Origin: an uncultured Actinomycetes bacterium
GTDB taxonomy: Bacteria > Actinomycetota > Actinomycetes > Mycobacteriales > Jatrophihabitantaceae
Length of the DNA: 64,000 nucleotides
Direction of reading: 5' to 3'
Assembly: GCA_963730855.1 (NCBI GenBank)
Contig: CAVSTK010000010.1
Coordinates: 53,011-117,010 of the forward strand
The notes under the pieces were generated by a model. That model ran no database searches and had not been told where the DNA came from. It was given only the letters and a program-made list of their open reading frames with translations. A program made the translations under genes and the position numbers. Of this stretch, positions 21,677 to 46,469 are shown in pieces. Positions within the stretch are counted from its first letter, which is position 1. Every line of letters begins with the position of its first letter.

Positions 21677-21726
21677 TTACTCCTCGTCGACCGTAGCATC
21701 AGCACTGTGGCCGACCGCGACCGAAG

Positions 21727-22442
21727 GTGACCGAGCGCGACCTCGGCTGGCCGAGCTACCCGCACGAGGTGCTGGCCGTCGTGCTGTCGGTGCGCGCGGG
21801 CCGGCTGTGCGTGCTGCTGTGGCAGCGGCAGCCAGCCGCCGCACCGCGGCCGGTGGGCGCTGCCCGGCGGCGGCGTCGCGGCCCGACGAGCGGCTGCGCG
21901 ACGCGATCACCCGCCACCTGGCCGACCAAGGTCGACGTGCGCGAGGTGGCCCACCTCGAGCAGCTGGCCACCCACAGCGCGGTCGCAGCGCGACCCGCGC
22001 GGCCGGGTGCTGGCGACCGCCTACCTCGGGCTGGTGCCCGTCCGACGTCGAGCCCGACGCTGCCCGCCGACACCGCCTGGCAGCCGGTCGACGAGCTGCC
22101 GCCGACCGCGTTCGACCACCACTTCTTCATCGACGCGGCGGTCGACCGGCTGCGGGCGAAGCTGTCCTACACGAACATCGGCTTCGCGCTGGCGCCGCCG
22201 CAGTTCACGATCGCCGAGCTGCGCGACATCGTCAGCGCGGCGCTCGGCTACCAGGTCTCGTCGACCAACCTGACCCGGGTGCTGACCCGGCGGCGCGATG
22301 ATCGAGCCGACCGACGACCACGCGCGCCCGGGCCGAATGGCGGGCGGCCGGCCGGCGACCGTCTACCGGTTCGTCGACACGCGAACTGACCGTCACCGAC
22401 CCGTTCGCGGTGCTCAAACCGCCAAGCCTGCGCAGCAGTTAG
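21727..22442 (+). pseudogene. nrtR: Nudix-related transcriptional regulator NrtR/NdnR-like (Nudix domain plus C-terminal winged helix), frame-broken
   Basis: Fragments: [21 protein letters not shown]; [23 protein letters not shown]; KVDVREVAHLEQLATHS; LPADTAWQPVDELPPTAFDHHFFIDAAVDRLRAKLSYTNIGFALAPPQFTIAELRDIVSAALGYQVSSTNLTRVL; GGRPATVYRF. Divergent from nadABC. Confidence 0.7.
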
Positions 22443-25797: not shown

Positions 25798-26821
25798 TCA
25801 GCGATCGGTCGACGGCGTAGAGATCGCGTCCTTGAGCCCGGGCGTCAGATAGGTGGCCTGGTCAGGTGCGCCGACGTCGGTGCCGGGGGGCACGATCTGC
25901 GTCGATCTGATCCAGGACGTCGTCGGACAGGACCACGTCTATGCCCGCGAGCAGGTCGTCGAGGTGCTCCATCGTGCGCGGTCCGATGATCGCGCTGGTC
26001 ACTCCGGGGTGCGTGATCGCGAAGGCCACGGCGAGGTGGGTCATCGGCAGGCCGGCCGCTTGAGCCAGCGGAATTATCTGCTCGATGGCGTCCAGTCGGG
26101 CCTCGTCGGTGAAGCTCGAGAACCGCTCGGCCCGCCGCAGATCGGTCGGCTGCCCCTTGCGGATGCGGCCGGTGAGCATGCCCTTGGCCAGCGGACTCCA
26201 GACCAGCGTGCCCATGCCGTACCGCTCGGCCACCGGCAGCACTTCGGACTCGATGGCGCGATCGAGGATCGAGTACGTCGGCTGCTCGGTGCGGAACCGC
26301 TCGAATCCCCGGCGCTGCGACACCCATTGGGCCTCGACCATCTCGGACGCCGGCATGGACGACGATCCGATCGCGCGCACCTTGCCGCTGCGGATCAGAT
26401 CGGTGAGCGCCGACAACGTCTCTTCCATGTCGGTGTCGGGATCAGGTCGGTGGATCTGATAAAGGTCGACGTGGTCGGTCTGCAGTCGGCGTAGCGAGTT
26501 CTCGATCGCTGTCATGATCCAGCGGCGCGAGAGCCCCTGCTGATTGGGGTCGCTGGGGTTGTCGCCCATCACGTTGCGCATCTTGGTGGCCAGCACGACC
26601 TCGTCCCGGCGCCCCTTCAGGGCCTTGCCGACGATCTCTTCGGACTCACCGCGCGAGTACACGTCGGCGGTGTCGATGAAGTTGATCCCGGCATCGAGCG
26701 CCTTGTGGATGATGCGGATCGAGTCGTCGTGATCGGGGTTGCCGATGCTGCCGAACATCATTGCGCCGAGCGCGTACGGGCTGACATTGATGCCGGTCCG
26801 GCCGAGGGGGCGATACTGCAT
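25798..26821 (-). pseudogene. Aldo/keto reductase, one frame break near 25905
   Basis: MQYRPLGRTGINVSPYALGAMMFG...IDTADVYSRGESEEIVGKAL...HVDLYQIHRPD. The last ~35 aa (IVPPGTDVGAPDQATYLTPGLKDAISTPSTDR stop) are in another frame. AGGAG lies upstream of ATG 26821. Confidence 0.88.
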
Positions 26822-29587: not shown

Positions 29588-30786
29588 ATGCGCCGAACCC
29601 GCCGGACCGGCCGTGTCGCCGACGTGCATACCGACATCCACATCGAGCTGCCGGTTGACGCCAACCCGGCTCACCCGGCCTATGACGGGTCACTGTTCGA
29701 CGTCATCGACGACGCCGACGGGATCGGCCAAGTTCGGCGAGCCCGGACCGCCGTTCGTCCGGTCGGCCGCCTTCTATCGCGGCTTCTGGGGCGGCGTCGG
29801 CCTGCTGCTGGCGTTGGGGGCCGCGCTGGCGGTCACGCGAGCTCGCGTCCGTCCTGCTGCTGGTGGTGGTCTCGGCGCTTCCTCGCGGTCGGGCTCAACC
29901 CGATCGTCGAGCTGCTGATCCGGACCGGCCTCAAGCGCGGACTGGCCGTCCTCGTCGTCGCGCTCGGGGCTCTCGCGATCGCGTCGCTGATCGTCTTCGT
30001 GCTGGTCAGCGTGATCAGCAACGAGGTCACGTCGTTCTTCAAGGACGGGCCGCACCTGTTGGACGGGCTGTTGAAGCACGCCTGGATCCGCAACCTCAAC
30101 GACAAATATCACTTCATCACCAAGCTGCAGGACCGGCTCAAGAACCCGGACCTCTCCTCGCAGGTGCTGCACAACGTCTTCAGCGAGGGCATCACCGCGG
30201 TCGAGGGACTGCTGAGCACGGTCGTCGTCATCGTCTTGACGCTGTACTTCCTGGCCGCGCTGCCGCAGCTCAAGCGCGGGCTCTACACGCTTGGCGCCGG
30301 CCTCGCGCCGGGTCCGCGTCGGCCAGCTGGGCGATGAGATCCTGCGCCGGACCGGCCGATTCGTCGTCGGCTCGTTCATCGTGGCGCTGCTGGCCGGCAC
30401 GGTGACCCTGATCCTGCTGCTCAGCGTGGGCCTGGGCCAATACGCGCTGCCGCTGGCGCTGTTCGTCGCGTTGCTCGACCTGGTGCCGCTGGTCGGCTCG
30501 GTCACCGGAGCATGCGGTGGTGACGCTGATCTGCTTCGCGTCATCGCTCGACGCGGGCCTGGCCGCGGCCGCCTTCTACCTGGTCTACGAACCGCTCGAG
30601 GGCTACGTGATCTATCCGCGGGTCATGCGGTCCTCGGTCGACGTGCCCGAGTACGTCACCGTGATCGCCGTCCTCGCCGGCGGGGCGCTCGGCGGCGTCG
30701 TCGGCGCCCTGCTGGCGCTGCCGATCGCCGCGGCGGTGCTGCTGCTCATCCGCGAGGTCTGGGTCCGACGCCAAGACGTCACGTGA
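29588..30786 (+). pseudogene. AI-2E family (PerM/UPF0118) transporter, at least 3 frame breaks; start uncertain
   Basis: Fragments: FYRGFWGGVGLLLALGAALAV / LLLVVVSAFLAVGLNPIVELLIRTGLKRGLAVLVV...VVVIVLTLYFLAALPQLKRGLYTL / FIVALLAGTVTLILLLSVGLGQYALPLALFVALLDLVPLVGS / FYLVYEPLEGYVIYPRVM...LLALPIAAAV. Confidence 0.8.
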
Positions 30787-31720
30787 TCGGCTCGACCGTG
30801 GGCGCCCGGCTGCCCCGGCTCTCGCATCACCACATCACCACTCACGTCGCGTTGGCCGCCGGGCTCGCACTTGCCTCGGCGCTCGCCTTCGCCGTCGCGA
30901 CGGTCGTGCAACAGCGCGCGGCGGCCCAGGTGTCGGACACGCACGCTCGCAGTAGCCGACTGATCGTCCAGTTGGCGCACGATCCGCGCTGGTGGGCCTC
31001 GACGCTGGGCAACGGATTCGGGTACGGACTGCAGGCCCTGGCCCTGGCCTTCGGATCGCTGCTGGTCGTCCAGCCGCTCTTGGTCACCTCGCTGCTCTTC
31101 GCGCTGCCCCTCGGCGCCCGATTGGCCCATCGGCGGCTGCCGAGATCGGCCTGGATCTGGGGTGCCGTGCTGGCGGCGTCGCTGGCGGTGTTCGTCGCCG
31201 CCGGCAATCCGAACAATGGCGCCAGCCATGCATCCGGGCGCCATTGGCTGCTGGTGGCCGCGGTCGGGGTGCCGGTCCTCGCTCGGGTGTCTGGTCGCCG
31301 CCAGCCGGACGTCCGGCTCGATCCGGGCGAGCCTGCTGGCGATCGTCGTTGGCATTCTGGGGGGCGTTCTGGCGGTGCTGACGAAGGAGTTCGTCGGTGC
31401 CCTCCGCCATGGCGGCATCGAACTGGCGCTCAGTACCTGGCCGCTGTACGCCTTGGTGGTGGTCGGCGCGGCGGGCATCTACGTGCAACAGCTCGCCTTC
31501 CAGGCCGGCGCGCTGCAGGCCTCGCTGCCGGTGATCACGGTGCTCGAGCCGTTGGTCGCCGCTGCCCTCGGGCTGACCCTGCTGCACGAGCAGTTGCGGG
31601 CGAGCGGTGGGCGGTTGGCGCTGCTGATTCGTCGCCGTGGTCGTGATGACGATCGCGACGATCACGCTGGCCCGCGGCCGGGCTCACGTCGAAGAGGCCG
31701 CTCTGACGACAGCAATTTGA
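30783..31720 (+). pseudogene. DMT-superfamily-like polytopic membrane protein, 2 frame breaks
   Basis: GTGA overlap with the upstream gene. ALAFAVATVVQQRAA...GYGLQALALAFGSLLVVQPLLVTSLLFALPL... / LLAIVVGILGGVLAVLTKEF...LYALVVVGAAGIYVQQLAFQAGALQASLPVITVLEPLVAAALGLTLLHE. Confidence 0.6.
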
Positions 31721-32297: not shown

Positions 32298-33098
32298 ATG
32301 ACTACCCAAACCTTCGCGGTCGACCGGCAGCTGAAGCTCGTCGTACGCATCGGGCACGGATCGTTGCGGGTTACGGCGGTGGACGGGCTGAGCGAGGCGA
32401 CCGTCACGCTGAGCGTGCGCTCCGGCCCGTCCACCGTGATCGAACAGACCACGGTCGAACTGCGCGGTTCGACGTTGCAGATCGCGACGCCACGAACCGG
32501 CGGCATCTTCGACCTGATCGGTGGGCGCACTCAGGACGCGGTCGACATCGAAGTGACCGTGCCGAGCGGCACGCCGATCAGGATCGGGTCGTTCACCGCC
32601 GACATCTCGCTGCTCGGTCGTTGTGGCGGCGTGGATCTCGGGGCGGGAGTCACCGAGTTCACCGCCGAGCAGATCGACGGCGATCTGCGGCTGCGTTACG
32701 GCAGTGGCAACTCCTCCATCCAGCGGGTCACCGGCTCGGCCACCGTGAAGTCGGGTTCCGGGGTGGCGCATTTCGGCGAGGTCGGCGGCTCGCTCACCTC
32801 AGCCTGCGGCTCGGGCCGGCTCGTGGTCGACACCGCCCGCGGTCCGGTGCGCTTTCGGACCGGTTCGGGCGAGGCCGAGCTGGGCGCGATCTTTGGCAAC
32901 GTCGATCTGGCCAGTGGCTCGGGAGCTCTGAGCATCGGCGTCCCCGCCGGGGTGGTGGCCCGGCTCGACCTGACCAGCGGCTCCGGTCACATCGATCCAC
33001 AGCTGCCGGTGTCGGCCAAACCGGACCGTGAGCGCGGATCGATCACCATCAGGGCCAAGACCGGCAGCGGCGACGTGCGGCTCTTTCGCGCGGCCTGA
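32298..33098 (+). CDS. DUF4097 beta-strand-repeat protein
   Basis: Repeated G-SG-(x)-h-x-h units (GSGNSSIQRV, SGSGVAHFGEV, GSGRLVVDTA, GSGEAELGAI, GSGALSIGVP, GSGHIDPQLP, GSGDVRLF). Confidence 0.85.
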   Translation: MTTQTFAVDRQLKLVVRIGHGSLRVTAVDGLSEATVTLSVRSGPSTVIEQTTVELRGSTLQIATPRTGGIFDLIGGRTQDAVDIEVTVPSGTPIRIGSFTADISLLGRCGGVDLGAGVTEFTAEQIDGDLRLRYGSGNSSIQRVTGSATVKSGSGVAHFGEVGGSLTSACGSGRLVVDTARGPVRFRTGSGEAELGAIFGNVDLASGSGALSIGVPAGVVARLDLTSGSGHIDPQLPVSAKPDRERGSITIRAKTGSGDVRLFRAA

Positions 33099-33207
33099 GC
33101 ACTCTGCCAAGGAGGAGGATCGATGTTCCGCGATCTGATCCGAATCGGTCTGTGGCACGGCGTCGCCCCGTCCGGGCCGCCCGCGACGAGGACGACCGAT
33201 GCCGAAC

Positions 33208-34164
33208 TCAGTCCGCCGTTGGCGCCGACCGCCGAGCTCGACGCTTACCTTCGTGCATGGCCTGCACCCGAGCGATCGGAATCGTCCGGCCGTGTTCGAC
33301 CAGTCCGTCATTGAGTGACTGCGCGGCGGGTAACGCCTCGGCCCACGGGTCGCGTCCGTTGGTCAAATCAACGACATTGTGCAGCGTGAAGTCGCTTGGC
33401 CCGATGTCGTCGAGATCGTCCCAGCCGACCGGGAACGACACCGGCAGACCGGGACGCAGCCGCGGCCCGTACACCGCGGCCACCGTGGCGCCACCCGCGC
33501 GGGTCGAGTCGATGTAAACCTTGCCGGCCCGCTCGTCGCGTACGAACGCCGTGGTCGCCAGGGTGGGATCGAGTTGCTCGGCCCGAGCCGCCAGGGCGCG
33601 GGTCGCAGCGGCGGCCTGTTCGGCGGTCGACCCGGTGATCGGCACGACGATATGCAGTCCCTTCGCACCGCTCGTCTTCACCGCACCGGTCAGTCCGGTC
33701 GCGGCGAGCGCCTGACGGACCAGCCGGGCGGCGGCCACCGCGAGCGAGAACGGCGCGCCCTCGGGAGGGTCTATGTCGAGCACCAACTCGGTCGGATTCT
33801 GCGGCGCATCGATGCGGAAGAGGGCCGGGTGATACTCGACGGCCCGCTGGTTGGCCAACCACAGCAGGGTGCGCCGATCGTTGCCGAGTGGGTAGGAGAT
33901 CTCACGCTTGGAGGCCTCGGCCCACATCGTCGCGCGCGGCACCCAGTCCGGTGTGTATTTCGGCAGGTTCTTCTGCATGAAGGGCGGCTGGCCCGGTCGC
34001 ACCCGGATCACGGAGAGCGGTCGATCGTGCAGATGCGCGACCATGCGATCACTCATGGCGTCGAGATAATCGACCAGGTCGCGTTTGGTGGCTGGGTCCT
34101 GGTCGAACAGCGCCTGGTCGAGGTTGGTCAGCCGAACACCGTCGCGTTCGTCGTCGTTGGTCAT
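33208..34164 (-). CDS. Stand-alone NHEJ LigD polymerase/primase domain protein
   Basis: LTNLDQALF...TKRDLVDYLDAMSDRMVAHLHDRPLSVIRVRPG...FMQKNLPKYTPDWV...ELVLDIDPPEG...VKTSGAKGLHIVVPI...GKVYIDSTRAGGATVAAVYGPR. Confidence 0.9.
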   Translation of the reverse strand: MTNDDERDGVRLTNLDQALFDQDPATKRDLVDYLDAMSDRMVAHLHDRPLSVIRVRPGQPPFMQKNLPKYTPDWVPRATMWAEASKREISYPLGNDRRTLLWLANQRAVEYHPALFRIDAPQNPTELVLDIDPPEGAPFSLAVAAARLVRQALAATGLTGAVKTSGAKGLHIVVPITGSTAEQAAAATRALAARAEQLDPTLATTAFVRDERAGKVYIDSTRAGGATVAAVYGPRLRPGLPVSFPVGWDDLDDIGPSDFTLHNVVDLTNGRDPWAEALPAAQSLNDGLVEHGRTIPIARVQAMHEGKRRARRSAPTAD

Positions 34165-34178
34165 CTATCGGCCACCGA

Positions 34179-35198
34179 TCAGACCGAAGGTTTCCAGCCG
34201 AGCGCCGGACCGAGCCGGGTCGCCAGGTCGGTGAGGATCTGAACGTAGTCGTCATGCTCGAAGCTGAAGGGCAGCGCGACGGCCACCTCGTCGATCTCGC
34301 GGAAGGCTGCGTGGGCGTATAACTGCTGCGCCAGCTCACCGGAGGAACCGACGAAGTCCGGTGAGAAGACCATCCGGGCCGGTCCCTGCGGAGTGCGGGT
34401 ACGAGGTAGTCGAGCCTGCGCGTACTGCTGGTACTTCTCGCGCTGCCCGGGCGACGCCGTATCGGTTGGGATGATCACGAGCCCCTGTGACACCCGGGCC
34501 CTCGCGCCATCGGGGTGGTGCGCTCGGAACGCCCGGATGTGCGAAAGCTGCGTCTCGGCGAAGTCCTCGGAGGCCTCGGCCTTGACCACGCTGCTGGTCA
34601 GAAAGTTCATCGAGTGCTCGCCGGCCCACTGAGCCGACCGGACGCTGGCCCCGCCGTACCACATCCGGCTGCCGAGCCCGGGGGAGTGCGGCTCGACCCG
34701 CTCGGAGTAGGCCTCGATCCCTTCGGTGCCGCTGAACGAGCTGGCCGGCTCGCCGCGGATCAGGCTCAGCAGTCGGGCGACTCGCTCGTAGCTGAAGTCC
34801 TCGAGGTCGGCGGTGTCCGGGTAGAGCGACTGTTTGAGCTCGTCGAAGTGACGCGGCGGCCCGACGCTCAGCCCGGGATTGAGCCGGCCGCCGGACAGGA
34901 TGTCGACGGTGGCGAGATCCTCGGCCAGCCGCAGTGGGTTCTCCCAACCGAGGGGGATGACGGCGGTGCCGAGTTCGATCCGGCGGGTTCGTTGCGAAGC
35001 CGCGGCCAGCACGGCGACGGGTGATGAGATGCCATATTGCAGATGCCGGTGACGCACCCAGGCGCTGTCGAAGCCGAGCCGCTCGCCGAGTGAGATGACC
35101 TCGAGCGTCGACTCGTGGCCGGCCCGCGGGTCGGCCCGGTCGAACTGGCCGATCGTCAGGAAGCCGAGCTTGCGCAGCGGCGCCGAGGGCACAGGCAC
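34179..35198 (-). CDS. LLM-class flavin-dependent oxidoreductase
   Basis: 339 aa: GFLTIGQFD...LGERLGFDSAWVRHRHLQYGISSP...LGTAVIPLGWENPLRLAEDLATVDILSGGRLNPGL. Confidence 0.88.
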   Translation of the reverse strand: MPVPSAPLRKLGFLTIGQFDRADPRAGHESTLEVISLGERLGFDSAWVRHRHLQYGISSPVAVLAAASQRTRRIELGTAVIPLGWENPLRLAEDLATVDILSGGRLNPGLSVGPPRHFDELKQSLYPDTADLEDFSYERVARLLSLIRGEPASSFSGTEGIEAYSERVEPHSPGLGSRMWYGGASVRSAQWAGEHSMNFLTSSVVKAEASEDFAETQLSHIRAFRAHHPDGARARVSQGLVIIPTDTASPGQREKYQQYAQARLPRTRTPQGPARMVFSPDFVGSSGELAQQLYAHAAFREIDEVAVALPFSFEHDDYVQILTDLATRLGPALGWKPSV

Positions 35199-35250
35199 TG
35201 AGTTCTCCTTCGTCCGTACGCATTCTGCCGCTGGAAGCGCTGGCCCGTGC

Positions 35251-36246
35251 TCAGCTCGAGAGTGACCGCAGCACGGACCACAGATCGTCGGGCACCTCGA
35301 AGCCCGACTGCATCGTGGCGCGCCGGCGTTCGCGGGCCCGGTCGCCCGGAACCAGGATGGGCTGATCGCTGTCGGCCCGGGCGCTGTCGCGCACCAGACC
35401 TAGGTAGGCCCCGATGGTCGACGCCACATCGGTGCCCGGTTGGAAGACGATGAACACGTCGCCCTTCGTGGCCGGCCGCTCGGAGTCGAGCGTGCCGTGA
35501 ACGCCGGTGCCGAGCGCGCTGGCCGTCAGCCCGGCGACCAGCACTTCGAACGCCAGCCCGAGGCCATAACCCTTCGGGCCGCCGAACGGGCTGATCGATC
35601 CGGTGCGGGCGGCGACCGGGTCGGTCGTGGGTCGCCCCTCGGCGTCCGCAGCCCAGCCGGGTTCGAGCGGCCGGTGCCGGTTGGCGTGGTCGATCACCTT
35701 GCCCATCGAGACGGCCGAGGTGGCCATGTCGAGGACGAATGGCTCCGGGTCGGCCGGGACGCCGATCGCGATCGGGTTCGAACCGACCATCGCGGTGCGT
35801 CCGTTCCAGGGATGCACCAGCGCCTCGCTGGTGGTGAGCGCCAGTACGAGCTGACCGCCTTCGGCCACCCGCTCGGCGTAATAGGACAGCATCCCGAGGT
35901 GGTTGCTCGCGGTGATGGCGGCCACTGCGACCCCGGTCGTCCGCGCCCGCTCGGTGACGACATTGAGGGCCCGCATCGCGACTACCGGTCCGAGCCCCTG
36001 CTGGCCCTCGACGCTGAGCAATGCATCGCCGGTCCATCGGTGCGAGCCGGTCGCGAGTGGATCGCAGACGCCGTTGCGGATGCGCTCGATCAGCCGCGGC
36101 AACCGGAGCAGTCCGTGGGAGGGGTGTCCCCGCAGCTCGGCCTCGACCCAGACGTCGGCCTGCAGAGCAGCGGCGTCGGAGGGAACGGTGGCCGATCGCA
36201 GCGCGGCGGTCGCCACCGCGGTGGCCTCATCGGCGGTTACCAGCAT
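35251..36246 (-). CDS. Ldh_2-family (type-2 malate/L-lactate/ureidoglycolate dehydrogenase-like) oxidoreductase
   Basis: EAELRGHPSHGLLRLPRLIERIRNG...SNHLGMLSYYAE...GSNPIAIGVP...DMATSAVSMGKV...SPFGGPKGYGLGLAFEVL. Confidence 0.88.
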   Translation of the reverse strand: MLVTADEATAVATAALRSATVPSDAAALQADVWVEAELRGHPSHGLLRLPRLIERIRNGVCDPLATGSHRWTGDALLSVEGQQGLGPVVAMRALNVVTERARTTGVAVAAITASNHLGMLSYYAERVAEGGQLVLALTTSEALVHPWNGRTAMVGSNPIAIGVPADPEPFVLDMATSAVSMGKVIDHANRHRPLEPGWAADAEGRPTTDPVAARTGSISPFGGPKGYGLGLAFEVLVAGLTASALGTGVHGTLDSERPATKGDVFIVFQPGTDVASTIGAYLGLVRDSARADSDQPILVPGDRARERRRATMQSGFEVPDDLWSVLRSLSS

Positions 36247-36279
36247 CGTCGCGTCTATCTCCTGGTCAGAGCTGCGGGC

Positions 36280-37299
36280 TCAATGACCCAACGCCCGCAG
36301 GCGAGCGTCAAGTTTCGGGTAGACCCGGCGGACGTTGTCGGCGTAGATCGCTTCCCGGCCCTCGGGCGTCAGATCGAGGTGGTCGACGTAACGGCGGGTG
36401 TCATCGAAGTGGTGGCCGGTTTCGGGATCGATGCCCCGCACGGCGCCGACCATCTCGGACCCGAAAAGAATGTTCCGGTGGTCGATTACATCGAAGAGCA
36501 GGTTGATGCCCGGCTGGTGGTAGACGCACGTGTCGAACCAGACGTTGCCCATGACGTTCTCGGCCACGGACGGCTGGTTGAGCATGTCGGCCAGCCCCCG
36601 GAAGCGGCCCCAGTGGTAGGGCACCGCGCCGCCGCCGTGCGGGATGACGAAACGCAGGTCCGGGAAGTCCGTGAAGAGCGAACCCTGGACGAATTGCATG
36701 AACGCGGTCGTGTCGGCGTTGAGATAATGCGCACCGGTAGCGTGGAAGTTCGCGTTGTCGCTGGCCGATACGTGGACCATTGCCGGCACATCGAGTTCGA
36801 CCATCACCTCGTACAACGGGTACCAGGACCGGTCGGTCAGCGGTGCTCCGTTCCAATGCCCACCGCTCGGGTCCGGATTCACCAGGCAGCCGACGAATCC
36901 GAGTTCCTCGACGCAGCGCCGCAGTTCCGGGATCGACTGTTCGATCGGGACGCCCGGCGACTGCGGCAACGAGCCGACTCCGGCGAAAGTGTCCGGGTAG
37001 AGGTCGACCACCCGCTCGATGAGGTCATTGTTGATCCGCGTCCACTCGGCGCTGACTGCGTGATCGCCCTGGTGGTGCCCCATCGCTGACGCGCGCGGCG
37101 AGAAGAGCGTTAGGTCGATGCCGCGCTCGCGAGCCAGCCTGAGCTGGTTGCTTTCGAGTGACTCGCGCAGCGTGTCGTCGTCGAACTGCGGGGGCGGGGG
37201 CGGGTGGCTTCCGTCGGCCCAGGCGGCGAGCTGGAGTTGCCGCCAATCGGCCAGGGCCGCCGGCACCGTCGTGTAGTGGCCGTGGCAATCAATGATCAC
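36280..37299 (-). CDS. Amidohydrolase_2 family protein, LigJ (4-oxalomesaconate hydratase)-like
   Basis: MIIDCHGHYT..., LVNPDP, SWYPLYEVMVELDVPAMVH, FPDLRFVIPHGGGAVPYHWGRF, WFDTCVYH, LFGSEMVG...DPETG. This pattern matches LigJ as I recall it. Confidence 0.8.
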   Translation of the reverse strand: MIIDCHGHYTTVPAALADWRQLQLAAWADGSHPPPPPQFDDDTLRESLESNQLRLARERGIDLTLFSPRASAMGHHQGDHAVSAEWTRINNDLIERVVDLYPDTFAGVGSLPQSPGVPIEQSIPELRRCVEELGFVGCLVNPDPSGGHWNGAPLTDRSWYPLYEVMVELDVPAMVHVSASDNANFHATGAHYLNADTTAFMQFVQGSLFTDFPDLRFVIPHGGGAVPYHWGRFRGLADMLNQPSVAENVMGNVWFDTCVYHQPGINLLFDVIDHRNILFGSEMVGAVRGIDPETGHHFDDTRRYVDHLDLTPEGREAIYADNVRRVYPKLDARLRALGH

Positions 37300-37303
37300 G
37301 TCG

Positions 37304-38191
37304 TCATCGCCCCTTCCGGACGGCGAAGCGCAGCGACTCGGGCAGCACCGCGTTCAGGCTGCCGGACGCGAACGCCGCCACCGTCAGGTTCGCGTCGGCG
37401 AAGCCGGCATCGGCGATCACGGCGCCGAGCGGGGCCAGCGCGGTAACCGCGTCGACCCGCCCGGCATCGACCTCGAGGCGAACGTCGTCGCCGAGGTCGC
37501 GCACCCGCAGGTTGAACACGTCCACCCGATTGGCGGCGAGCAGGGCCCGGACCGCCCGTTCGGCCTCATCCACCCGGCTCAGCCGGGCGGCCGTGATCGG
37601 GATTCCGTACGCGATGCGGCTCGACAGGCAGGGACTGGCCGGCTGGTTCCAGGTCGGCAGGTTCCAGGCCCGGCTGATCGCGCGAACCTCGTCCTTCGTC
37701 AGCCCGAGGTCGGCCAGCGGGGTTCGCGCCCCCCGCTCGGCCGCCGCGCTGATGCCCGGTCGCCAGCCCGCGCGCACGTCGTCGGCGTTCGTACCGGTCA
37801 CGATCACTCCGGTCGTGACCGATGCGGTGATGGCGGTGACCGCGTCGAGCAGGGTCGATTTGCAGAAGTAGCAACGGTCCGACCCGTTGGCCGCATAGCC
37901 GTCGGTCTCGAGCTCGTTGGTCCATACCGAGCTGTGGGTGACGCCCAACCCGGCGGCCACGTCGACTGCGACCGACCAGGCGTCCAACGGCAGCGCGGGG
38001 GAGCGAGCGGTCACCGCATGGACGGCCGCAGCACCGAGCGCGCGCACCGCGGCGGCCAGGACGAGGGCTGAGTCGACGCCGCCCGAGTAGGCCACCGTCA
38101 CCCGCCCGAACGGGCGGAACCAATCGAGCAGACCCTCGGCCGAATCGGTGATCGCGCCCGCGCTGGCCTCAACCGCGGGCAGGTGGCTCAT
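37304..38191 (-). CDS. larE: LarE, ATP-dependent sacrificial sulfur transferase of nickel-pincer nucleotide (NPN) cofactor synthesis
   Basis: PP-loop VAYSGGVDSALV; DRCYFCK; TGTNADD; conserved QPASPCLSSRIAYG. ATG at 38191; the track ORF is over-extended at its 5' end. Confidence 0.88.
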   Translation of the reverse strand: MSHLPAVEASAGAITDSAEGLLDWFRPFGRVTVAYSGGVDSALVLAAAVRALGAAAVHAVTARSPALPLDAWSVAVDVAAGLGVTHSSVWTNELETDGYAANGSDRCYFCKSTLLDAVTAITASVTTGVIVTGTNADDVRAGWRPGISAAAERGARTPLADLGLTKDEVRAISRAWNLPTWNQPASPCLSSRIAYGIPITAARLSRVDEAERAVRALLAANRVDVFNLRVRDLGDDVRLEVDAGRVDAVTALAPLGAVIADAGFADANLTVAAFASGSLNAVLPESLRFAVRKGR

Positions 38192-38217
38192 TCCAGCAGC
38201 ATGACACAATCCGTTCT

Positions 38218-38904
38218 GTGCCCCAGGATCGCGGTTTCCTCGACCTGGGCTTCGCCAACATCGACACCGACCGACTGGCCCGCACGGGCGACGCCGAGGT
38301 GGTGCTGGCGTCGCACAAGACACCGGCCGAGACGGTCGCCGCGCTGGCCGCGTTGGCCCAGGCGCATCCCGAGCGTGCTGTGCTCGCGACCCGCTGCAGC
38401 GAGGCAACCCGGGCGCTGTGTGCGAGCGAACTGCCGGAATCCGTCCTCGACGACGTCGGACGGACGGTGCGGCTCGGCCCGCTACCGGCGCCGCGCGGCC
38501 GGGTCGTCGTGGTGACGGCCGGGTCGTCGGACGCACCGGTGGCCCGCGAGGCCGCGGTTACCGTGCAGGTGTTCGGCGCGGCCGTCGAGCAGGTGGTCGA
38601 CGTCGGTGTCGCCGGCCTGCACCGGCTGCTGGCCCACCTCGACCAAATCAGGGCGGCCGACGCGGTGGTCGCCGTGGCCGGGGTCGACGGTGCGCTGCCC
38701 GGTGTGCTGGCCGGCCTGATCGGTCTCCCGCTCATCGCGGTGCCGACCAGTGTCGGGTACGGCGCCTCGTTCGGTGGCCTGGCCGCGCTGCTGACCATGC
38801 TCAACGCCTGCGCGCCCGGGGTCACCGTGGTCAACATCGACAACGGCTTCGGCGCCGGAGTGGCCGCCGCCCGGATCGCCCGGCAGACCGCGCCGCGAGC
38901 ATGA
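38218..38904 (+). CDS. larB: LarB, pyridinium-3,5-biscarboxylic acid mononucleotide synthase (PurE-like)
   Basis: LGFANIDTDRLARTGDAEVV...VVVVTAGSSDAPVA...VDVGVAGLHRLL...VAVAGVDGALPGVLAGLIGLPLIAVPTSVGYG...LLTMLNACAPGVTVVNIDNGFGAG. Confidence 0.88.
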   Translation: MPQDRGFLDLGFANIDTDRLARTGDAEVVLASHKTPAETVAALAALAQAHPERAVLATRCSEATRALCASELPESVLDDVGRTVRLGPLPAPRGRVVVVTAGSSDAPVAREAAVTVQVFGAAVEQVVDVGVAGLHRLLAHLDQIRAADAVVAVAGVDGALPGVLAGLIGLPLIAVPTSVGYGASFGGLAALLTMLNACAPGVTVVNIDNGFGAGVAAARIARQTAPRA

Positions 38905-40127
38905 CCGGTACCCAGTCGGTTCTGTGGATCGACGCCAGCCGCGGCCTTGCCGGCGACATGTTGCTGGCCGCACTGCTCGACGCGGGGGCCGACCTGGCTG
39001 CCGTGCGCGCCGCGGTCGCCGCGACGGCAAGCGCGGCCGGCGAGGCAATCGAGATCGACGTGGAGTCGGTGCGACGGCACGGTCTGCGGGCCAATCGGCT
39101 GATCGTGACCACCGCACCGAGCAGCATCCGTCGCCACCTCGACGACGTTCTGACGCTTATTGCGGCCGCCGGCCTGTCCGAGGCCGCGGCCGGTTTCGCC
39201 GAACGCACCTTTCGACGGCTGGCTGAAGCTGAGGGTCAGGTGCATGGCACCGCGGCGGCGGCCGTCCATTTCCACGAGGTCGGCGCGCTCGATTCGATCG
39301 CCGACATCATCGGCTGTGCCGTGGCCCTGGACTCCCTAGGCCTGCTGGCCCCGGACGCGGTCCGCGTGGTCAGCCAGATCGCGCTCGGCGGCCGCAGCGT
39401 GCGGACCGAGCACGGCCTGCTGCCGGTACCGGTGCCGGCCGTCCTCGAACTGCTGCGCGGCTACCCGGTCTCGGCCGGGGCCGGTGATCGCGAGCTGTGC
39501 ACTCCGACCGGCGCAGCCCTGGTCGCAACTCTGGCCACCGGGACGGGCCCGCTGCCGGCGCTGTCGATCCGCTCGACCGGCAGCGGCGCCGGGGGCTATG
39601 ACCCCGACGACCGCCCGAACGTCACCCGGGTCGTGGTCGGTGACCGCGCAGTGGCTGCCGCCGATTGGCAGCAGGTCGATCTGATGGTGCTTGAGGCGAC
39701 CGTCGATGACCTCGACCCCCGACTATGGCCGCCGGTGCTCGACGCGCTGCACCAGGCGGGTGCGGCCGACGCCTGGCTGACGCCGATCCTGATGCGCCAC
39801 GGCCGTCCGGGCCACGTCGTCACCGCACTGCTGCCGGCCGACTCGCTCGATGCCGGGTTCGCCGTGCTGGCCGGGCTCGGCATCACGCTGGGCGCGCGAA
39901 CCTACGGTGTCGAGCGCCGATCGCTGCCACGGGACTCGGTGATCGTCGAGGTCGGCGGTCAGCCCGTCGCGGTCAAACGGGGCTTTCTGGGCGGCCGCGC
40001 GGTGAGCGTGCAGGCCGAGTTCGTCGACGCCGTTGCCGCGGCCGCGGCGAGCGGAATCCCGTTGTCGGAAGTGCTGGAGCGGGCGCGACAACTGGCCCGC
40101 GATTGGCCGCTGCACAAACCGGGCTAA
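38901..40127 (+). CDS. larC: LarC, nickel insertion (cyclometallase) protein, DUF111 family
   Basis: ATGA overlap with larB. GLAGDMLLAALLDAGAD...HFHEVGALDSIADIIG...PVPVPAVLELL...TPTGAALV. Confidence 0.88.
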   Translation: MTGTQSVLWIDASRGLAGDMLLAALLDAGADLAAVRAAVAATASAAGEAIEIDVESVRRHGLRANRLIVTTAPSSIRRHLDDVLTLIAAAGLSEAAAGFAERTFRRLAEAEGQVHGTAAAAVHFHEVGALDSIADIIGCAVALDSLGLLAPDAVRVVSQIALGGRSVRTEHGLLPVPVPAVLELLRGYPVSAGAGDRELCTPTGAALVATLATGTGPLPALSIRSTGSGAGGYDPDDRPNVTRVVVGDRAVAAADWQQVDLMVLEATVDDLDPRLWPPVLDALHQAGAADAWLTPILMRHGRPGHVVTALLPADSLDAGFAVLAGLGITLGARTYGVERRSLPRDSVIVEVGGQPVAVKRGFLGGRAVSVQAEFVDAVAAAAASGIPLSEVLERARQLARDWPLHKPG

Positions 40128-40184
40128 CTTCCTGCAACCGCGCAAAACCGCCGGGCTCAGCGGCGCCGATGCTAACCTTTTGGC

Positions 40185-41537
40185 GTGGACGCCACCGATG
40201 GGCGGGCCGAACTGGCGGCGAGTTCGGGCCGCACCGATCCCGCTCGTGAGCTGGTCGTCCTGCGCCGGTTGGTCACCGTCTATCGGCAGCTGTCGAGCAT
40301 GGCTGTGCAGAACGCGACCCTCGACGAGGTCGCCGAGCTGATCGCTGCGCGCACCGACTCGACCGTCGCCATCGTCGACCAGCAGCTCAACGTCCTGACG
40401 AGCGCCTCGGCGGCCCATTTCGCCTCGACCGGTGGCGTCCAGAAGTACCTGGCCCAGCCGCGGCTGACCCAGGTACTGGCGACGGTCGGCCGCACCCGCT
40501 GCGCCCTCTGCCTGCCCGACGTCGAGTCGGCCGCGTCGGTGATCATCGCGCCGATCCTGGTGGGTGACGAGGTGCCGGCCTATCTGATGACGCTCGACAG
40601 CGGCGATCAGGGTCTGGGCGATGACTTGCGACTGCTGCTGACCGAACATGCGGCGACCGTCTGCGGCGTGATCCTGGGCCGCGACCAGATCGTTGCCGTC
40701 GCGGCGAGCAGTGCCCGCGATGACATCGTCGAGGGATTGCTGTACTCCCGGGGCGCCGAGGTATCCGAGATCGAACGGTGGGCGAAGCTGCTCGGGTACG
40801 ACTCCGAGCGCAGTCACCACGTCGTGTCGATCCTGGCCGAGCCCGCGCAGCTGCATCCCGACCCATCGGTACCCCGCGTCGAGCGGGCGCTGGACGCCCT
40901 CGAACGGATGCTGACGATGTACGCGCCCGAAGCGATCGTCTCGTTGCGCGGTGAAGAGCTGGTGATCGTCGTGCCTGACGGTCGGGCCGAGGCCGGCGAG
41001 GTGGGCGACCGCGGCTCCATCGCCGAAGCGCGTCACCTGGGCGAACTGTGCCTGCAGCGCACCCGCAAGTCGTTCCCCGACGTCATCCTGTCGATCGGAG
41101 TCGGCGGACCGTGCCGCGCGGCCACCCAGATCGCGTCGGCGTACGCGGACGCGCGGCGCACGATCGTCACCGCCCAGCGGATGGGCCGACGCGACCAGGT
41201 CGTCGCCTTCGAAGACCTCGGCATCCACCGGCTGCTGCTCGAACGCGCCGACATCTCCCAGTTGCGCACGTTCGCGGACGAGGTGCTCGGGGAGTTGGTT
41301 CGCCGCCGTCCCGAATACGTCCACACGCTGGCGTGTTTCTTCCGCGAGAACAACAGCCCGCAGCGGGCCGCGCGCACCCTGCACGTACACGCGAACACGG
41401 TGGCCTACCGGATCCGCCGGGTCGAGGAACTGACCGGCCTCGACCTCGACAACTACCGCGACCGGCTGCTCGCGCAGGTGGCGGTCGAGATCATCGAGGC
41501 GGTCGGGGGACTGGACGGAAAGGGGCCGGCCACATGA
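40185..41537 (+). CDS. PucR/CdaR-family transcriptional regulator
   Basis: C-terminal HTH: TLACFFRENNSPQRAARTLHVHANTVAYRIRRVEELTGLDL. Confidence 0.88.
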   Translation: MDATDGRAELAASSGRTDPARELVVLRRLVTVYRQLSSMAVQNATLDEVAELIAARTDSTVAIVDQQLNVLTSASAAHFASTGGVQKYLAQPRLTQVLATVGRTRCALCLPDVESAASVIIAPILVGDEVPAYLMTLDSGDQGLGDDLRLLLTEHAATVCGVILGRDQIVAVAASSARDDIVEGLLYSRGAEVSEIERWAKLLGYDSERSHHVVSILAEPAQLHPDPSVPRVERALDALERMLTMYAPEAIVSLRGEELVIVVPDGRAEAGEVGDRGSIAEARHLGELCLQRTRKSFPDVILSIGVGGPCRAATQIASAYADARRTIVTAQRMGRRDQVVAFEDLGIHRLLLERADISQLRTFADEVLGELVRRRPEYVHTLACFFRENNSPQRAARTLHVHANTVAYRIRRVEELTGLDLDNYRDRLLAQVAVEIIEAVGGLDGKGPAT

Positions 41538-43360
41538 GCGAGTTCTCCGAACTGCTCGAACGCCGGGTATTGATCTGTGACGGCGCGATGGGCACCATGC
41601 TGCACGCCGCCGGCAACTCGCTACACCGTTCGCTGCCCGAGTTGAACCTGTCGAACCCGGACCTCGTCAGCACCGTGCACGAGAGCTACGTCGACGCCGG
41701 CGCCGACATCCTGCTCACCAACACCTTCGGCGCCAGCCGGATCCGGTTGGACAGCTCTGGTCTCGCCGACCGGGTCGCCGAGCTCAATGTCGCCGCGGTC
41801 GACCTGGCCCGCACGGCGGCCGACCGGAGCGACCGCCGGGTCTTCGTCGCCGGCTCCGTCTCGCCCGCGGTCGGAGCCAGCCAGCGCTCGCAGGTCCACC
41901 CGCAGCACCGGATGGACGCACTGGCCGAGCAGATCAAGGCGCTGCACGACGGTGGTGTCGATCTGCTGGTCTTCGAGACCTTCGGCTTCCTCGACGAGCT
42001 GATCGAGGCGATCACCATCGCTGCAGACTTCAGCGACCTGCCGATCATCGCCCAGGCCACGTTCTCACCCGATGGACTCACCTTCGGGGGCGAGACGCCG
42101 ATGGTGGTGGCCAGCCGGCTCAGCGAACAGCCGATCGTCGCGCTGGGCGTCAACTGCACCGTCGGCCCCCAGCAGGTTCAGTCGATCCTCGAGCAGTTGG
42201 TGCGGCACAGCCGGCTGCCGGTGACCGCGCAGCCCAACGCCGGTCTGCCCCGGCGAGTGGCCGGTGGTCGATTCGAATACATCATCGACGACGCTTATTT
42301 CGCCCGGTACGCCCGCCGCTACGCGGCCACGGGCGCAGCGATCGTCGGCGGTTGCTGTGGAACGACGCCCAATCACATCCGGGCCGCGGTCGAGGCGGTC
42401 GCCGATCTTCGCACCCGAGCCCGACGCCGCCCGGCGTCGGTGCCGCCGGCACTGCTCGAGCCGCGCGTGCCGGCCGACCAGCCCGGTTCGCGCGCCGGTC
42501 TAGCCGCCCGATTGGCCCAGGGGCAGTTCAGTGTGGTCGCGCAGATCCGGGCCGACAACATCGCCGAGCTCGACCGGACGGCCGACTTCATCGACTCGGC
42601 CCGCGGCAGCGGGGTGGATCTGTTCTACGTCGCCGACCAGCCCAGTGCCCGAGCCCGGGCCGACGCGGTGAGTGTTGCGCTGAACCTGCAGTATCGCTGC
42701 GGCATCGACCCGATCGCGACCGCGACCACCTGGGACAAGACGATCATGACGCTGCAGGCCGCGCTGCTCGGCGTGCATGCGCTGGGCCTGCGCACGATCG
42801 TCTGCGAGACGGGCAATCCACCGATCCGCGGCGAATACCCCAACTCCGACGGCGTCTGGGAGGTCGACTCGATCGGCATGATCGGGCTACTGGCCGCGCT
42901 GAACAAGGGCCAGGACTTCTCGGGTCTTTCGTTGGGTACCGAGACCGCCTTCCATATCGGCGCCCGCTTCAATCCGGGTGCCGTCGATCTCGAGGAAGAG
43001 ATCGCCCGCACCCGCGCCAAGATCCGGGCCGGTGCGCAGTTCCTGATCAGCCGGCCCGTCCATGAATTGGGTCGAGTCCGTCGGGTACTCGATGCGATTT
43101 CCGACGATTACGTTCCCGCGCTGATAACGGTGGTGGCACTGGAGTCCTTCGAGCAGGCCGAATTCCTGGCTCACGAGGTTCCCGATGTCTACATCCCGAC
43201 CGAGACGCTGGCCGCTATGAAGCAGGGCGGCTCCGACCCGTCGGCCACGGGTATTGCGCTGGCCAAGCAACTCCTCGCCGGGGTTAGCGAAATAGCGCAA
43301 GGGGTCGTCCTGGGAACCGCCGAGCCCAGCAGCCTGGCCGGCCTGATCGGCGCGCTCTAA
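41534..43360 (+). CDS. Bifunctional homocysteine S-methyltransferase / methylenetetrahydrofolate reductase (YitJ-like)
   Basis: ATGA overlap with the PucR gene. N-terminal part: VLICDGAMGTML...ILLTNTFGAS...GVNCTVGP...GGCCGTTPNHI (Zn-Cys motifs). C-terminal part is MTHFR-like: IATATTWDKT...ALLGVHALGLRTIVCETGNPP...GAQFLISRPV. Confidence 0.88.
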   Translation: MSEFSELLERRVLICDGAMGTMLHAAGNSLHRSLPELNLSNPDLVSTVHESYVDAGADILLTNTFGASRIRLDSSGLADRVAELNVAAVDLARTAADRSDRRVFVAGSVSPAVGASQRSQVHPQHRMDALAEQIKALHDGGVDLLVFETFGFLDELIEAITIAADFSDLPIIAQATFSPDGLTFGGETPMVVASRLSEQPIVALGVNCTVGPQQVQSILEQLVRHSRLPVTAQPNAGLPRRVAGGRFEYIIDDAYFARYARRYAATGAAIVGGCCGTTPNHIRAAVEAVADLRTRARRRPASVPPALLEPRVPADQPGSRAGLAARLAQGQFSVVAQIRADNIAELDRTADFIDSARGSGVDLFYVADQPSARARADAVSVALNLQYRCGIDPIATATTWDKTIMTLQAALLGVHALGLRTIVCETGNPPIRGEYPNSDGVWEVDSIGMIGLLAALNKGQDFSGLSLGTETAFHIGARFNPGAVDLEEEIARTRAKIRAGAQFLISRPVHELGRVRRVLDAISDDYVPALITVVALESFEQAEFLAHEVPDVYIPTETLAAMKQGGSDPSATGIALAKQLLAGVSEIAQGVVLGTAEPSSLAGLIGAL

Positions 43361-43586
43361 CCGGCACTGCGACCAGCAATAGCACCCTCGCGTCGACATT
43401 GACACCCCAGTCGGCACTTTGCCGGCGTGTCACGGCCGCTCCGGGGGGCAAGGTCGACGGTAGGCGGCTTCGGATCGGCGTTACGGTGCGGTGAGCGGAG
43501 ACCGAATCAGTGGCATGGTCACAATATCGGTACCCATACTTTGTGATGATGGCTCAGATACTGTGGTCACATCACTATCGAGGCGT

Positions 43587-43641
43587 CAAAGTCTGGTGGT
43601 CTGACCAACTAGGTGATCCACCTCTCAAGGGCCAGACTTTG
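43587..43641 (+). promoter_or_regulatory. Structured element in the low-GC purU leader: 10-bp stem CAAAGTCTGG/CCAGACTTTG enclosing GGTG-ATC-CACC, followed by a TTGTTCT tract
   Basis: Read directly from the sequence. It sits inside a 377-bp intergenic gap whose 43500-43660 part is visibly AT-richer than the surroundings. Confidence 0.35.
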
Positions 43642-43737
43642 TTCTGACCCCGATTGAGATCGTCCGACGATCGGCGCAAACACCCGAACGGATCGCCGCC
43701 GATTCCACCCGGCGCGACACTTGGAAAGGCCAGTGTG

Positions 43738-44643
43738 ATGACCGAATCTGCCGTCTTGCCCGGCCGCGCGCAATTGCGTCAAGCCGAGCTGCGCGACGTC
43801 GGGCGAGTGCTGGCGTCCTGCCCCGACCGTCCCGGCGTCTCGGCCGCCGTCACGACGATGCTGTTCAACCTGGGCGCGAACATCACCGACTTCCAGCAGT
43901 ACTCGACCGACCCGATCTCGGGACGGCTGTTCCTACGGGTCGAGTTCTTGCTGCCCGAGCTCGAGGCTCGGGTGGGCGACGTCGAGTCCGGCTTCGCGAC
44001 ACTGGCCGACGAGTTCGAGCTGCAGTGGCGTTTCGCGCGGGCGGCCCAGCCCAAACGGCTGGCCATCATGGTCTCGAAGGCCGACCACGCGCTGCACGAA
44101 CTGCTCTGGCGCCAACAGTCGGGTGACCTCAATGCCGAGATCACCATGGTTATCTCGAACCACCTCGATCTGGCCCCGCCGGTGCTGGCGGCCGGGATCC
44201 CGTTCCACCACATCCCGGTGACCAAGGACAACAAGGACGAGGCCGAGGCGGCGCAGCTCGAACTGATGGTCGGCCACGTCGACACCGTCGTGCTGGCCCG
44301 CTACATGCAGATCATCTCGGCGAACTTCATCTCGAAGTTCGAGCACCAGGCGATCAACATCCACCACAGCTTCCTGCCCGCATTCGTCGGCGCCGACCCT
44401 TACGGTCGGGCCGCCGAGCGGGGCGTGAAGCTGATCGGGGCGACGGCTCACTACGTCACCGCCGAACTCGACGCCGGCCCGATCATCGAACAAGATGTCG
44501 CCCGCGTCGATCACCGTCAACCGGTCGCGGAACTTCGCCGGGCCGGTCGCTTTGTCGAGCGCGAGGTTCTTGCTCGCGCAGTTGGCTGGCACGTCGAGGA
44601 TCGGGTGATCGTGCACGGCAACAAGACGATCGTCTTCACCTGA
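43738..44643 (+). CDS. purU: Formyltetrahydrofolate deformylase PurU
   Basis: ACT-like N-terminus (CPDRPGVSAAVTTMLFNLGANITDFQQY) plus formyltransferase core (VISNH..., VLARYMQIIS..F, INIHHSFLPAFVGADPY, GATAHYVTAELDAGPIIEQDV). Confidence 0.93.
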   Translation: MTESAVLPGRAQLRQAELRDVGRVLASCPDRPGVSAAVTTMLFNLGANITDFQQYSTDPISGRLFLRVEFLLPELEARVGDVESGFATLADEFELQWRFARAAQPKRLAIMVSKADHALHELLWRQQSGDLNAEITMVISNHLDLAPPVLAAGIPFHHIPVTKDNKDEAEAAQLELMVGHVDTVVLARYMQIISANFISKFEHQAINIHHSFLPAFVGADPYGRAAERGVKLIGATAHYVTAELDAGPIIEQDVARVDHRQPVAELRRAGRFVEREVLARAVGWHVEDRVIVHGNKTIVFT

Positions 44644-44738
44644 TCGGTTGTGAAGCTAGTTAGTGGCGTTGCCACCAACGCCGAATGTGCCGGGCGATCG
44701 CCCGGCGCGTCCACCGGAGCAGAAGGAACGCGAACTAG

Positions 44739-45941
<1,203 letters not shown>

Positions 45942-45944
45942 CTG

Positions 45945-46469
45945 ATGCCTGGTACCCGGTCCGTCCGACTGCCGACACCCACGGTGCCGGCAGTTCGGGC
46001 CGGGACCATGTACCGGCTCAACAAACTGCTGGCTCCCAACCCCGTCTATCGTCGGCTGGCTCAGTATCTGGAGCGGCATCCGGTTGCGTACCGGTTGTTC
46101 ACCCGGACCGAAGAGAAGGTCAAGAACTCGATCTTCGGTTGCCAGATGTGCGGCGAGTGCGCGCTGCCGGGCACCGGCTACGCGTGTCCAATGAGCTGCC
46201 CCAAGCAGCTTCGGAACGGACCGTGCGGCGGGGTGGGGACGGGCGGTGAATGCGAGGTCTACCCAGCCATGAAGTGTGTCTGGGTCACCGCGTTCGAACG
46301 GGCCGACGCCGAAGGGCATCGGGCCGATCTGCGGCTGCTACAACGCCCGGTCGATCACCGTGAGAGCGGTAAGAGCTCCTGGGTGAACTACTGGCAGGGG
46401 CGCGACGACGGCCTGTGGACCAGCACTAACGGCCTCGGCACGCCGGTGGAGATTGCGCGTCCGAATTGA
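45945..46469 (+). CDS. MTHFR C-terminal-domain (MetV-like) Cys-rich protein
   Basis: FGCQMCGECALPGTGYACPMSCPKQLRNGPCGGVGTGGECEVYPAMKCVW. Starts 4 nt after the metK stop. The true start may be the internal M at residue 22. Confidence 0.78.
   Translation: MPGTRSVRLPTPTVPAVRAGTMYRLNKLLAPNPVYRRLAQYLERHPVAYRLFTRTEEKVKNSIFGCQMCGECALPGTGYACPMSCPKQLRNGPCGGVGTGGECEVYPAMKCVWVTAFERADAEGHRADLRLLQRPVDHRESGKSSWVNYWQGRDDGLWTSTNGLGTPVEIARPN

Follow-up and report, generated by a model that had tools for sequence, protein, structure and literature searches.

Gene clusters for the nickel-pincer cofactor that lack a local larA are a known, systematically surveyed and common class, since 2,108 of the 11,067 LarC loci surveyed by Semersky et al. 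in 2026 carry larB and larE but no larA at a distance of up to 20 open reading frames (ORFs) (PMC13524815). Those loci yielded the aldo-keto reductase NphT, in which His144 and Lys200 hold the cofactor (PDB 9YEB; PMC13524815), and ornithine cyclodeaminases are reported to use a pincer cofactor in adenine-dinucleotide form (Desguin et al. 2025, as cited in PMC13524815). LarA is therefore no longer the sole known cofactor user, and the premise of an earlier reading of the DNA analyzed here (the original prediction), namely, that LarA-type enzymes are the only characterized users, is outdated. The present locus, one more case of the larA-less layout, lies in a 64,000-nucleotide (nt) stretch, here called the window, of contig CAVSTK010000010.1 from an uncultured member of the Jatrophihabitantaceae, a high-G+C actinomycete placed close to the Geodermatophilaceae and Frankiaceae. 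In it, larB and larC diverge from larE, and larE is followed by genes for non-LarA enzymes. From comparison with related sequences, we consider it fairly probable that the lar genes here form a working cofactor-biosynthesis module of the ordinary kind, with its client encoded at another site, and that the genes downstream of larE are passengers.

The lar system of Lactiplantibacillus plantarum, in which the lactate racemase gene larA accompanies larB, larC, and larE, resembles the window in these three biosynthetic genes but differs from it in several respects: the window has no larA in its 64 kb, its LarC is one fused ORF, its larE is divergent from larB-larC, and its LarE has the CXXC-C pattern of the catalytic [4Fe-4S] type rather than a single sacrificial cysteine. 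NphT-type larBCE loci are like the window in that LarA is missing over a range of 20 ORFs but an aldo-keto reductase is present in it, whereas the reductase of the window is of the canonical NADPH type and belongs to another divergent gene pair, at a distance of about 12 kb from larC. Pincer-cofactor ornithine cyclodeaminases, as presented in the paper that cites them, were discovered by the LarE-neighborhood logic that the original prediction also used, but no member of that family occurs among the scanned ORFs of the window.

The lar genes of the window and the search for known cofactor users

Judged by NCBI equivalog models and Pfam, larB, larC, and larE of the window are genuine and full-length and form a complete set of the nickel-pincer module. 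The larE gene (37304..38191, minus strand), whose product is the ATP-dependent sulfur insertase of the pathway, scores 258.1 bits with TIGR00268 (cutoff, 150), and larB (38218..38904, plus strand) scores 245.6 bits with NF033503 (cutoff, 175), with 208 of the 209 profile positions covered. The larC gene (38901..40127, plus strand), encoding the CTP-dependent nickel insertase, carries LarC1 and LarC2 fused in one ORF, with 180.4 bits for TIGR00299 (LarC1; cutoff, 90), 91.7 bits for NF052512 (LarC2; cutoff, 50), and 360 bits for PF01969 (Ni_insertion) across residues 8 to 391. LarE displays the PP-loop SGGVDS at residue 36 and the cysteines of the CXXC-C pattern as CYFC at 107 and PC at 187. In Thermotoga LarE, this pattern binds a [4Fe-4S] cluster, giving a catalytic and not a sacrificial enzyme (PMC9283937); since the window LarE has the same motif, it probably belongs to the catalytic [4Fe-4S] type as well. 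The arrangement of the three genes is as originally described: larE is divergent from larB-larC, with a spacer of 26 nt between the larE ATG (38191) and the larB GTG (38218), and the larB stop and the larC start overlap in an ATGA at 38901-38904.

LarA (PF09861 plus PF21113) is encoded nowhere in the 64-kb window, in agreement with the first inspection of the sequence. A tblastn search of the window with L. plantarum LarA, a query identical to PDB 5HUQ, gave only chance matches (E > 4), and a hidden Markov model (HMM) built from five LarA sequences exceeded 2.9 bits on none of the six-frame ORFs with 50 or more amino acids. Pfam scans of about 60 predicted window proteins gave no match to PF09861 (Lar_N). 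Nor was there a Pfam match to the ornithine cyclodeaminase/mu-crystallin family in any of the roughly 60 scanned proteins, a family for which no direct reference-sequence search was made.

The only aldo-keto reductase of the window (25862..26821, minus strand; PF00248, 253 bits) was considered as an NphT-type client and rejected, as it lacks the His/Lys motif and is of the canonical NADPH type. Its best PDB match is 9WK1 (308 bits), and its closest structures are NADPH-dependent enzymes. Aligned to NphT (9YEB), it has Met in place of His144 and Ser in place of Lys200, reads IGSSSMP where NphT has IGITGHG and VWSPLA where NphT has TIKAIA, and keeps the WSPLA and IIGPRT segments (AMP-binding C-terminal). 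As a positive control, the gene directly behind larE in another locus, L044, scored 249 bits to 9YEB with both NphT motifs.

Three metagenome loci (L107, L122, and L130) and two loci of Solirubrobacteraceae (L043 and L044) have an NphT ortholog directly behind larE, the lar genes being in the order larB-larC-larE. The orthologs of these Solirubrobacteraceae-type loci score 249 bits to 9YEB and carry the motifs GVTGHG, TIKS, and TWYEP. Two more aldo-keto reductase paralogs and glycoside-hydrolase-like genes lie nearby in L044, which matches the sugar context reported for NphT.

Gene turnover behind larE

As the original prediction had stated, larE heads a tightly packed, co-directional string of genes for non-LarA enzymes, an arrangement that both the sequence and Pfam bear out. 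On the minus strand, larE is followed by genes for a LigJ-like amidohydrolase (LigJ; 36280..37299), an Ldh_2-family oxidoreductase (Ldh_2; 35251..36246), and a luciferase-like oxidoreductase (LLM; 34179..35198), with gaps of 4 nt (larE-LigJ), 33 nt (LigJ-Ldh_2), and 52 nt (Ldh_2-LLM), and 14 nt beyond LLM by a stand-alone gene for a LigD primase-polymerase domain (LigD-pol; 33208..34164), which ends the string. Shine-Dalgarno-like sequences lie upstream of LigJ, Ldh_2, and LLM, the one of LigJ (GGAAGGGG) being situated inside the 3' end of larE, and the four genes are probably co-transcribed with larE. A scan of positions 32900-41700, of low power in DNA of 69% G+C (the window as a whole has about 68%), returned no promoter-like site, and the sole terminator-like site of the same low-power scan, near 41360 of the minus strand, lies outside the operon. 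Rfam and tRNA searches near the lar genes returned neither an Rfam match nor a tRNA.

Four closer contigs (L091 to L094), located through a protein search, carry other arrangements at this site. L092 (87% nucleotide identity to the window) has larB divergent from larE-LigJ, with the 26-nt and 4-nt spacings unchanged, while L094 (78%) has larC-larB divergent from larE-Ldh_2, LigJ being absent. L093 (77 to 79%) has larB divergent from larE-LLM-LigD-pol, with neither LigJ nor Ldh_2, and L091, a metagenome-assembled genome (MAG; about 80%), runs from MetK to PucR-larC-larB, divergent from larE, which is followed by 6.2 kb of unrelated small genes and then by LLM-LigD-pol. In window coordinates, similarity breaks at 37321/2 (17 to 18 nt ahead of the larE stop), at 36252, and at 35222-35230, and comparison with L091 places the limits of a LigJ-plus-Ldh_2 cassette at 35231-37320. 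Directly after the larE stop, L094 (positions 1980-2013) has ATGATCATCGACTGCCGAGGCTGA, in which a seven-codon remnant of the LigJ start (MIIDC...; ATG ATC ATC GAC TGC CGA GGC TGA) precedes the Ldh_2 start, a deletion scar that marks the former place of LigJ in this lineage. Because the breakpoints coincide among the relatives and L094 retains this scar, the string behind larE reads as a mosaic, in which the LigJ-plus-Ldh_2 cassette stands between larE and the LLM-LigD-pol pair at a site of gene turnover.

The spacer between larE and larB holds an 18-nt sequence, CGGATTGTGTCATGCTGC (minus-strand reading; 38196..38213), that the five clade members share without a single difference, against only 77 to 87% identity in the adjoining coding DNA, and a motif search found it once in the window. 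This sequence may be an overlapping divergent promoter/operator for leaderless larE and larB transcripts, and it may contain overlapping -10 elements, CATGCT for larE and CACAAT for larB.

Conservation of the neighborhood was assessed in a LarE-anchored set of 160 loci of other organisms, drawn from a one-genome-per-species scan and from metagenomes, 106 of the loci being at least 10 kb long; the top LarE of the one-genome-per-species scan is 56% identical to that of the window. Homologs of LigJ and Ldh_2 are absent from all 160 loci, as are credible homologs of LLM, the single weak match amounting to 39% over 109 residues. LarA is adjacent in 3 of them, and an NphT-like reductase is adjacent in five or six. 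The linkage of larE to LigJ, Ldh_2, and LLM is confined to one clade, at 77 to 87% nucleotide identity, and is variable within it; the original prediction had looked to other genomes for a conserved larE-amidohydrolase-Ldh_2-LLM linkage, which did not appear.

The nearest outgroups, L095 and L175 to L178 (LarE, 62% identity), retain the divergent larC-larB/larE core and have LarA adjacent; in L095 it is the neighbor of larC, and in L175 it converges with larE. LarA was recognized by PF09861 plus PF21113 on record for L175 to L178 and by tblastn plus the LarA HMM for L095, and the catalytic and cofactor-binding residues His108, His174, Lys184, and His200 are conserved in LarA of both outgroups.

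Within the clade, pairwise ratios of nonsynonymous to synonymous substitution rates (dN/dS) are 0.07 to 0.12 for LarB, 0.17 to 0.31 for LarC, and 0.16 to 0.31 for LarE (window LarE against four relatives), over synonymous distances of 0.34 to 0.87 per site, and values for flanking genes are comparable (0.06 to 0.19). Between L093 and L091, both of which are without LigJ and Ldh_2 at the site, LarE has a dN/dS of 0.21. These values indicate that the lar genes are kept under purifying selection with or without LigJ and Ldh_2 as neighbors, and a pathway kept regardless of its neighbors argues against an obligate relationship of lar with either Ldh_2 or LigJ. The same figures bear on the idea that the lar genes are leftovers that serve no enzyme after the loss of an ancestral adjacent larA. 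Such decay would fit the presence of LarA next to the lar genes in the nearest outgroups and not in the clade, the somewhat higher dN/dS of LarE and LarC relative to LarB, and a single-base insertion in the larE of L091 (9858-9923), which shifts the frame just past the PP-loop and leaves a called product of 249 amino acids. We nevertheless regard it as very improbable, given that all three lar genes of the window are full-length and above their equivalog cutoffs, that dN/dS values of 0.07 to 0.31 over such synonymous distances reflect long-maintained constraint, and that the window has several split genes, none of which is a lar gene. The frameshift in L091, a single indel in a MAG, may be either real decay or an assembly error.

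The reading that we favor is one of a working module with a client outside the window. LarB would carboxylate and hydrolyze nicotinic acid adenine dinucleotide (NaAD), a [4Fe-4S]-type LarE would insert two sulfur atoms, and LarC would insert nickel, so that the nickel-pincer nucleotide cofactor would be made, as the genes and the purifying selection on them suggest. Since the nearest outgroups have LarA adjacent, the client would most likely be an unlinked LarA homolog; an unlinked NphT-type aldo-keto reductase or a user of the ornithine cyclodeaminase type would be less likely. LigJ with Ldh_2 and LLM with LigD-pol would represent two unrelated blocks at a fast-turnover site, whose products presumably use normal cofactors (zinc, NAD(P)H, and flavin or F420) and would be passengers, not clients. 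The original prediction had allowed for a new client that is either co-operonic or unlinked; the unlinked part is retained here as the likeliest outcome, while the absence of conserved linkage and the variation at the site speak against the co-operonic part.

The enzymes encoded behind larE

The Ldh_2-family oxidoreductase, of the malate/L-lactate/sulfolactate type and predicted to be NAD(P)H-dependent, matches PF02615 with 326 bits over positions 1 to 332 of 333. It scores 325 bits to PDB 3UOE, aligning end to end (318 versus 320 residues) without length change, and, of the 82 columns with a conservation of at least 95% in 119 homologs, it departs from the consensus in a single one (81 kept). 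Nothing in the sequence suggests a remodeled cofactor pocket. Homologs at 57 to 64% identity occur in Proteobacteria and Actinobacteria, and orthologs (61% identical) stand in an Ldh_2-FeADH-Aldedh cluster with a GntR regulator and no lar genes in all three contexts examined. The choice of Ldh_2 as the prime candidate for a new cofactor-dependent enzyme, made in the original prediction, finds no support in these conserved columns, in the lar-less clusters of its orthologs, or in its absence from the site in L093 and L091.

The luciferase-like protein is predicted to be a flavin/F420-type oxidoreductase of an uncharacterized subfamily (PF00296, 109 bits), and its top PDB match scores only 76 bits. 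The copies in L091 and L093 are 82% identical to it and syntenic with LigD-pol. An ortholog with 73% identity is encoded in Amycolatopsis sp. CA-161197 (L003, 18725-19756), in a 21-kb locus that has no lar gene. In the same strain, this ortholog lies about 8 kb from a LigJ ortholog; the repeated proximity of LigJ and LLM is perhaps a coincidence.

That one of these co-operonic enzymes is itself a new user of the pincer cofactor, Ldh_2 in the first place and the TIM-barrel LLM in the second, with the NAD(P)H or flavin site repurposed as in NphT, appears quite unlikely to us. In its favor, a switch to pincer cofactors has precedents in two NAD(P)-type folds (PMC13524815), selection maintains the lar genes without a local LarA, and the candidates are co-directional with larE at gaps of 4 to 52 nt, larE-Ldh_2 adjacency being found in the window and L094 and larE-LLM proximity in the window, in L093, and, less closely, in L091. 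Yet all of this adjacency comes from one narrow clade in which synteny may be inherited, and neither family is a credible neighbor in any LarE locus outside it. Ldh_2 retains its conserved columns relative to orthologs in lar-less neighborhoods and is missing in L093 and L091, between which LarE is still constrained, while the close relative of LLM in Amycolatopsis lacks lar genes around it. A more specific form of this proposal, in which the ancestral adjacent LarA was replaced in the clade by a client of a different fold encoded behind larE, most plausibly Ldh_2 and alternatively LLM, is likewise quite unlikely in our view, all comparative tests made here having turned out against it; if it were true, Ldh_2 or LLM would be the third non-LarA scaffold for the nickel-pincer cofactor.

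The amidohydrolase encoded directly behind larE is, by its sequence, a true LigJ ortholog, that is, a predicted zinc-dependent 4-oxalomesaconate hydratase of the amidohydrolase superfamily (Amidohydro_2, 184 bits). It matches the LigJ structures of Sphingobium (6DXQ/6DWV) with 532 bits over residues 1 to 338 and has the motifs CHGH, MVHVS, PHGGG, and FGSEMVG, which we take to be the metal-binding HxH, His, and catalytic Glu elements. Relative to LigJ of Sphingobium SYK-6, which acts in the protocatechuate 4,5-cleavage/gallate pathways, the window protein is thus a full-length match with intact catalytic motifs, but its gene is parted from the usual partners and wedged between larE and Ldh_2. 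Homologs at 72 to 77% identity number in the thousands and include actinobacterial orthologs. Three ortholog loci (L001, L003, and L084), of which L003 is from Amycolatopsis and the other two are from Geodermatophilus (G. siccatus and strain SYSU D00742), are protocatechuate/gallate-type clusters; all three have genes for an RraA-like aldolase and an NAD_binding_2 dehydrogenase and no lar genes, and two of them (L001 and L003) also have PrpF. None of the scanned window proteins is RraA-like, PrpF, or NAD_binding_2/DUF1932. In the outgroup L175, an Amidohydro_2 gene 9 kb from larE was considered as a LigJ counterpart and rejected, not being LigJ-like.

LigJ of the window has Ser110, Leu139, and Val140 at positions where Gln, Asn, and Leu, respectively, are found in 118 or 119 of 119 homologs (Q110S, N139L, and L140V); Asn139 and Leu140 are found in Sphingobium LigJ as well. 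The same three substitutions are present in LigJ of L092, and the dN/dS between the two proteins is 0.057, which together point to a fixed, selected variant in the lar-linked LigJ, possibly with altered specificity.

These features are relevant to a further explanation, according to which LigJ and Ldh_2 do not bind the cofactor but share a pathway of hydroxy- or oxo-polycarboxylic acid catabolism with an unlinked LarA-type epimerase, co-expression with larE matching cofactor supply to demand. The 2-hydroxy and 2-oxo acids that Ldh_2 enzymes convert are the substrate class of LarA, and the expression of larE and of LigJ and Ldh_2 looks tightly coupled. The low dN/dS of LigJ in the clade and its fixed clade-specific substitutions would fit this explanation, as would the CdaR/PucR-type regulator next to larC. 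We consider it unlikely, however, as the usual LigJ partners (RraA-like aldolase, PrpF, and NAD_binding_2 dehydrogenase) are absent from the window, LigJ is paired with Ldh_2 in none of the six ortholog contexts, the cassette is lost in part or in whole in three of four sister lineages, and the pathway would depend on a LarA, which the window lacks.

Several points weigh against our preferred reading of an ordinary module with passengers behind it. That LarA or another client is encoded elsewhere in the genome is an assumption, and the linkage of LigJ and Ldh_2 to lar was judged by adjacency rather than by the presence of lar genes genome-wide. The in-clade adjacency of larE and Ldh_2 (two lineages) and the proximity of larE and LLM (three lineages) could be functional and not ancestral. 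The 4-nt spacing of larE and LigJ, whose ribosome-binding site falls within larE, hints that the two are expressed in a coupled manner, and the function of LigJ may have shifted, given the clade-specific changes at otherwise invariant sites. Finally, NphT and the ornithine cyclodeaminases are precedents for the switch of NAD(P)-type folds to pincer cofactors.

Surrounding genes and significance

The LigD-pol gene at the end of the string, assigned to nonhomologous end joining (PF21686 [LigD_Prim-Pol], 255 bits), lies directly behind LLM in L091 and L093 as it does in the window. On the other side of the module, a PucR/CdaR-family transcription regulator (40185..41537, plus strand; PF13556 plus PF17853) begins 57 nt downstream of larC; it adjoins larC in L091 also, where it is 87% identical with a dN/dS of 0.11. 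Downstream of larC and PucR, a methyl-cycle cluster (41048-51144) encodes a homocysteine S-methyltransferase/MTHFR fusion, PurU, MetK, DUF5981, MTHFR, a MetE-like protein, and a PfkB kinase, together with a 489-amino-acid protein that has a weak Methyltransf_28 match. The same order of PucR, homocysteine S-methyltransferase/MTHFR, PurU, MetK, and DUF5981 is found next to larC in L091, with nucleotide similarity extending up to window position 48048.

Elsewhere in the window, split genes are seen for an AI-2E transporter (29588-31646), an LLM protein (60114-61197), and a zinc alcohol dehydrogenase (61160-62037) and in the nadA-nadB-nadC region (18100-22200); this reflects either an abundance of pseudogenes or assembly indel errors, while the lar genes and their four neighbors are intact. 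The nadC, nadB, and nadA genes, situated in DNA of 75% G+C at a distance of about 16 kb from larB, are seemingly fragmented by frameshifts; these genes of de novo NAD synthesis supply the precursor of NaAD, the substrate of LarB. A single minus-strand operon for a branched-chain amino acid ABC transporter (52100-55900) combines opposite extremes of GC skew, with +0.3 to +0.43 in its pair of ATPase genes and -0.25 to -0.36 in its pair of permease genes, and AT skew is the mirror image. In a 549-amino-acid protein encoded at 2977-4626, a luciferase-like oxidoreductase domain is joined to a hydrolase domain of the HAD family.

Few enzyme families are known as users of the nickel-pincer cofactor, and LarA, ornithine cyclodeaminase (2025), and NphT (2026) each widened nickel biochemistry, which makes larA-less larBCE clusters a hunting ground for further client scaffolds. 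The present locus is of use mainly as a caution, in that cassette turnover can yield tight, operon-like packing behind larE. As the clade keeps its lar genes under selection while the adjacent genes change, the real client would have to be sought genome-wide.

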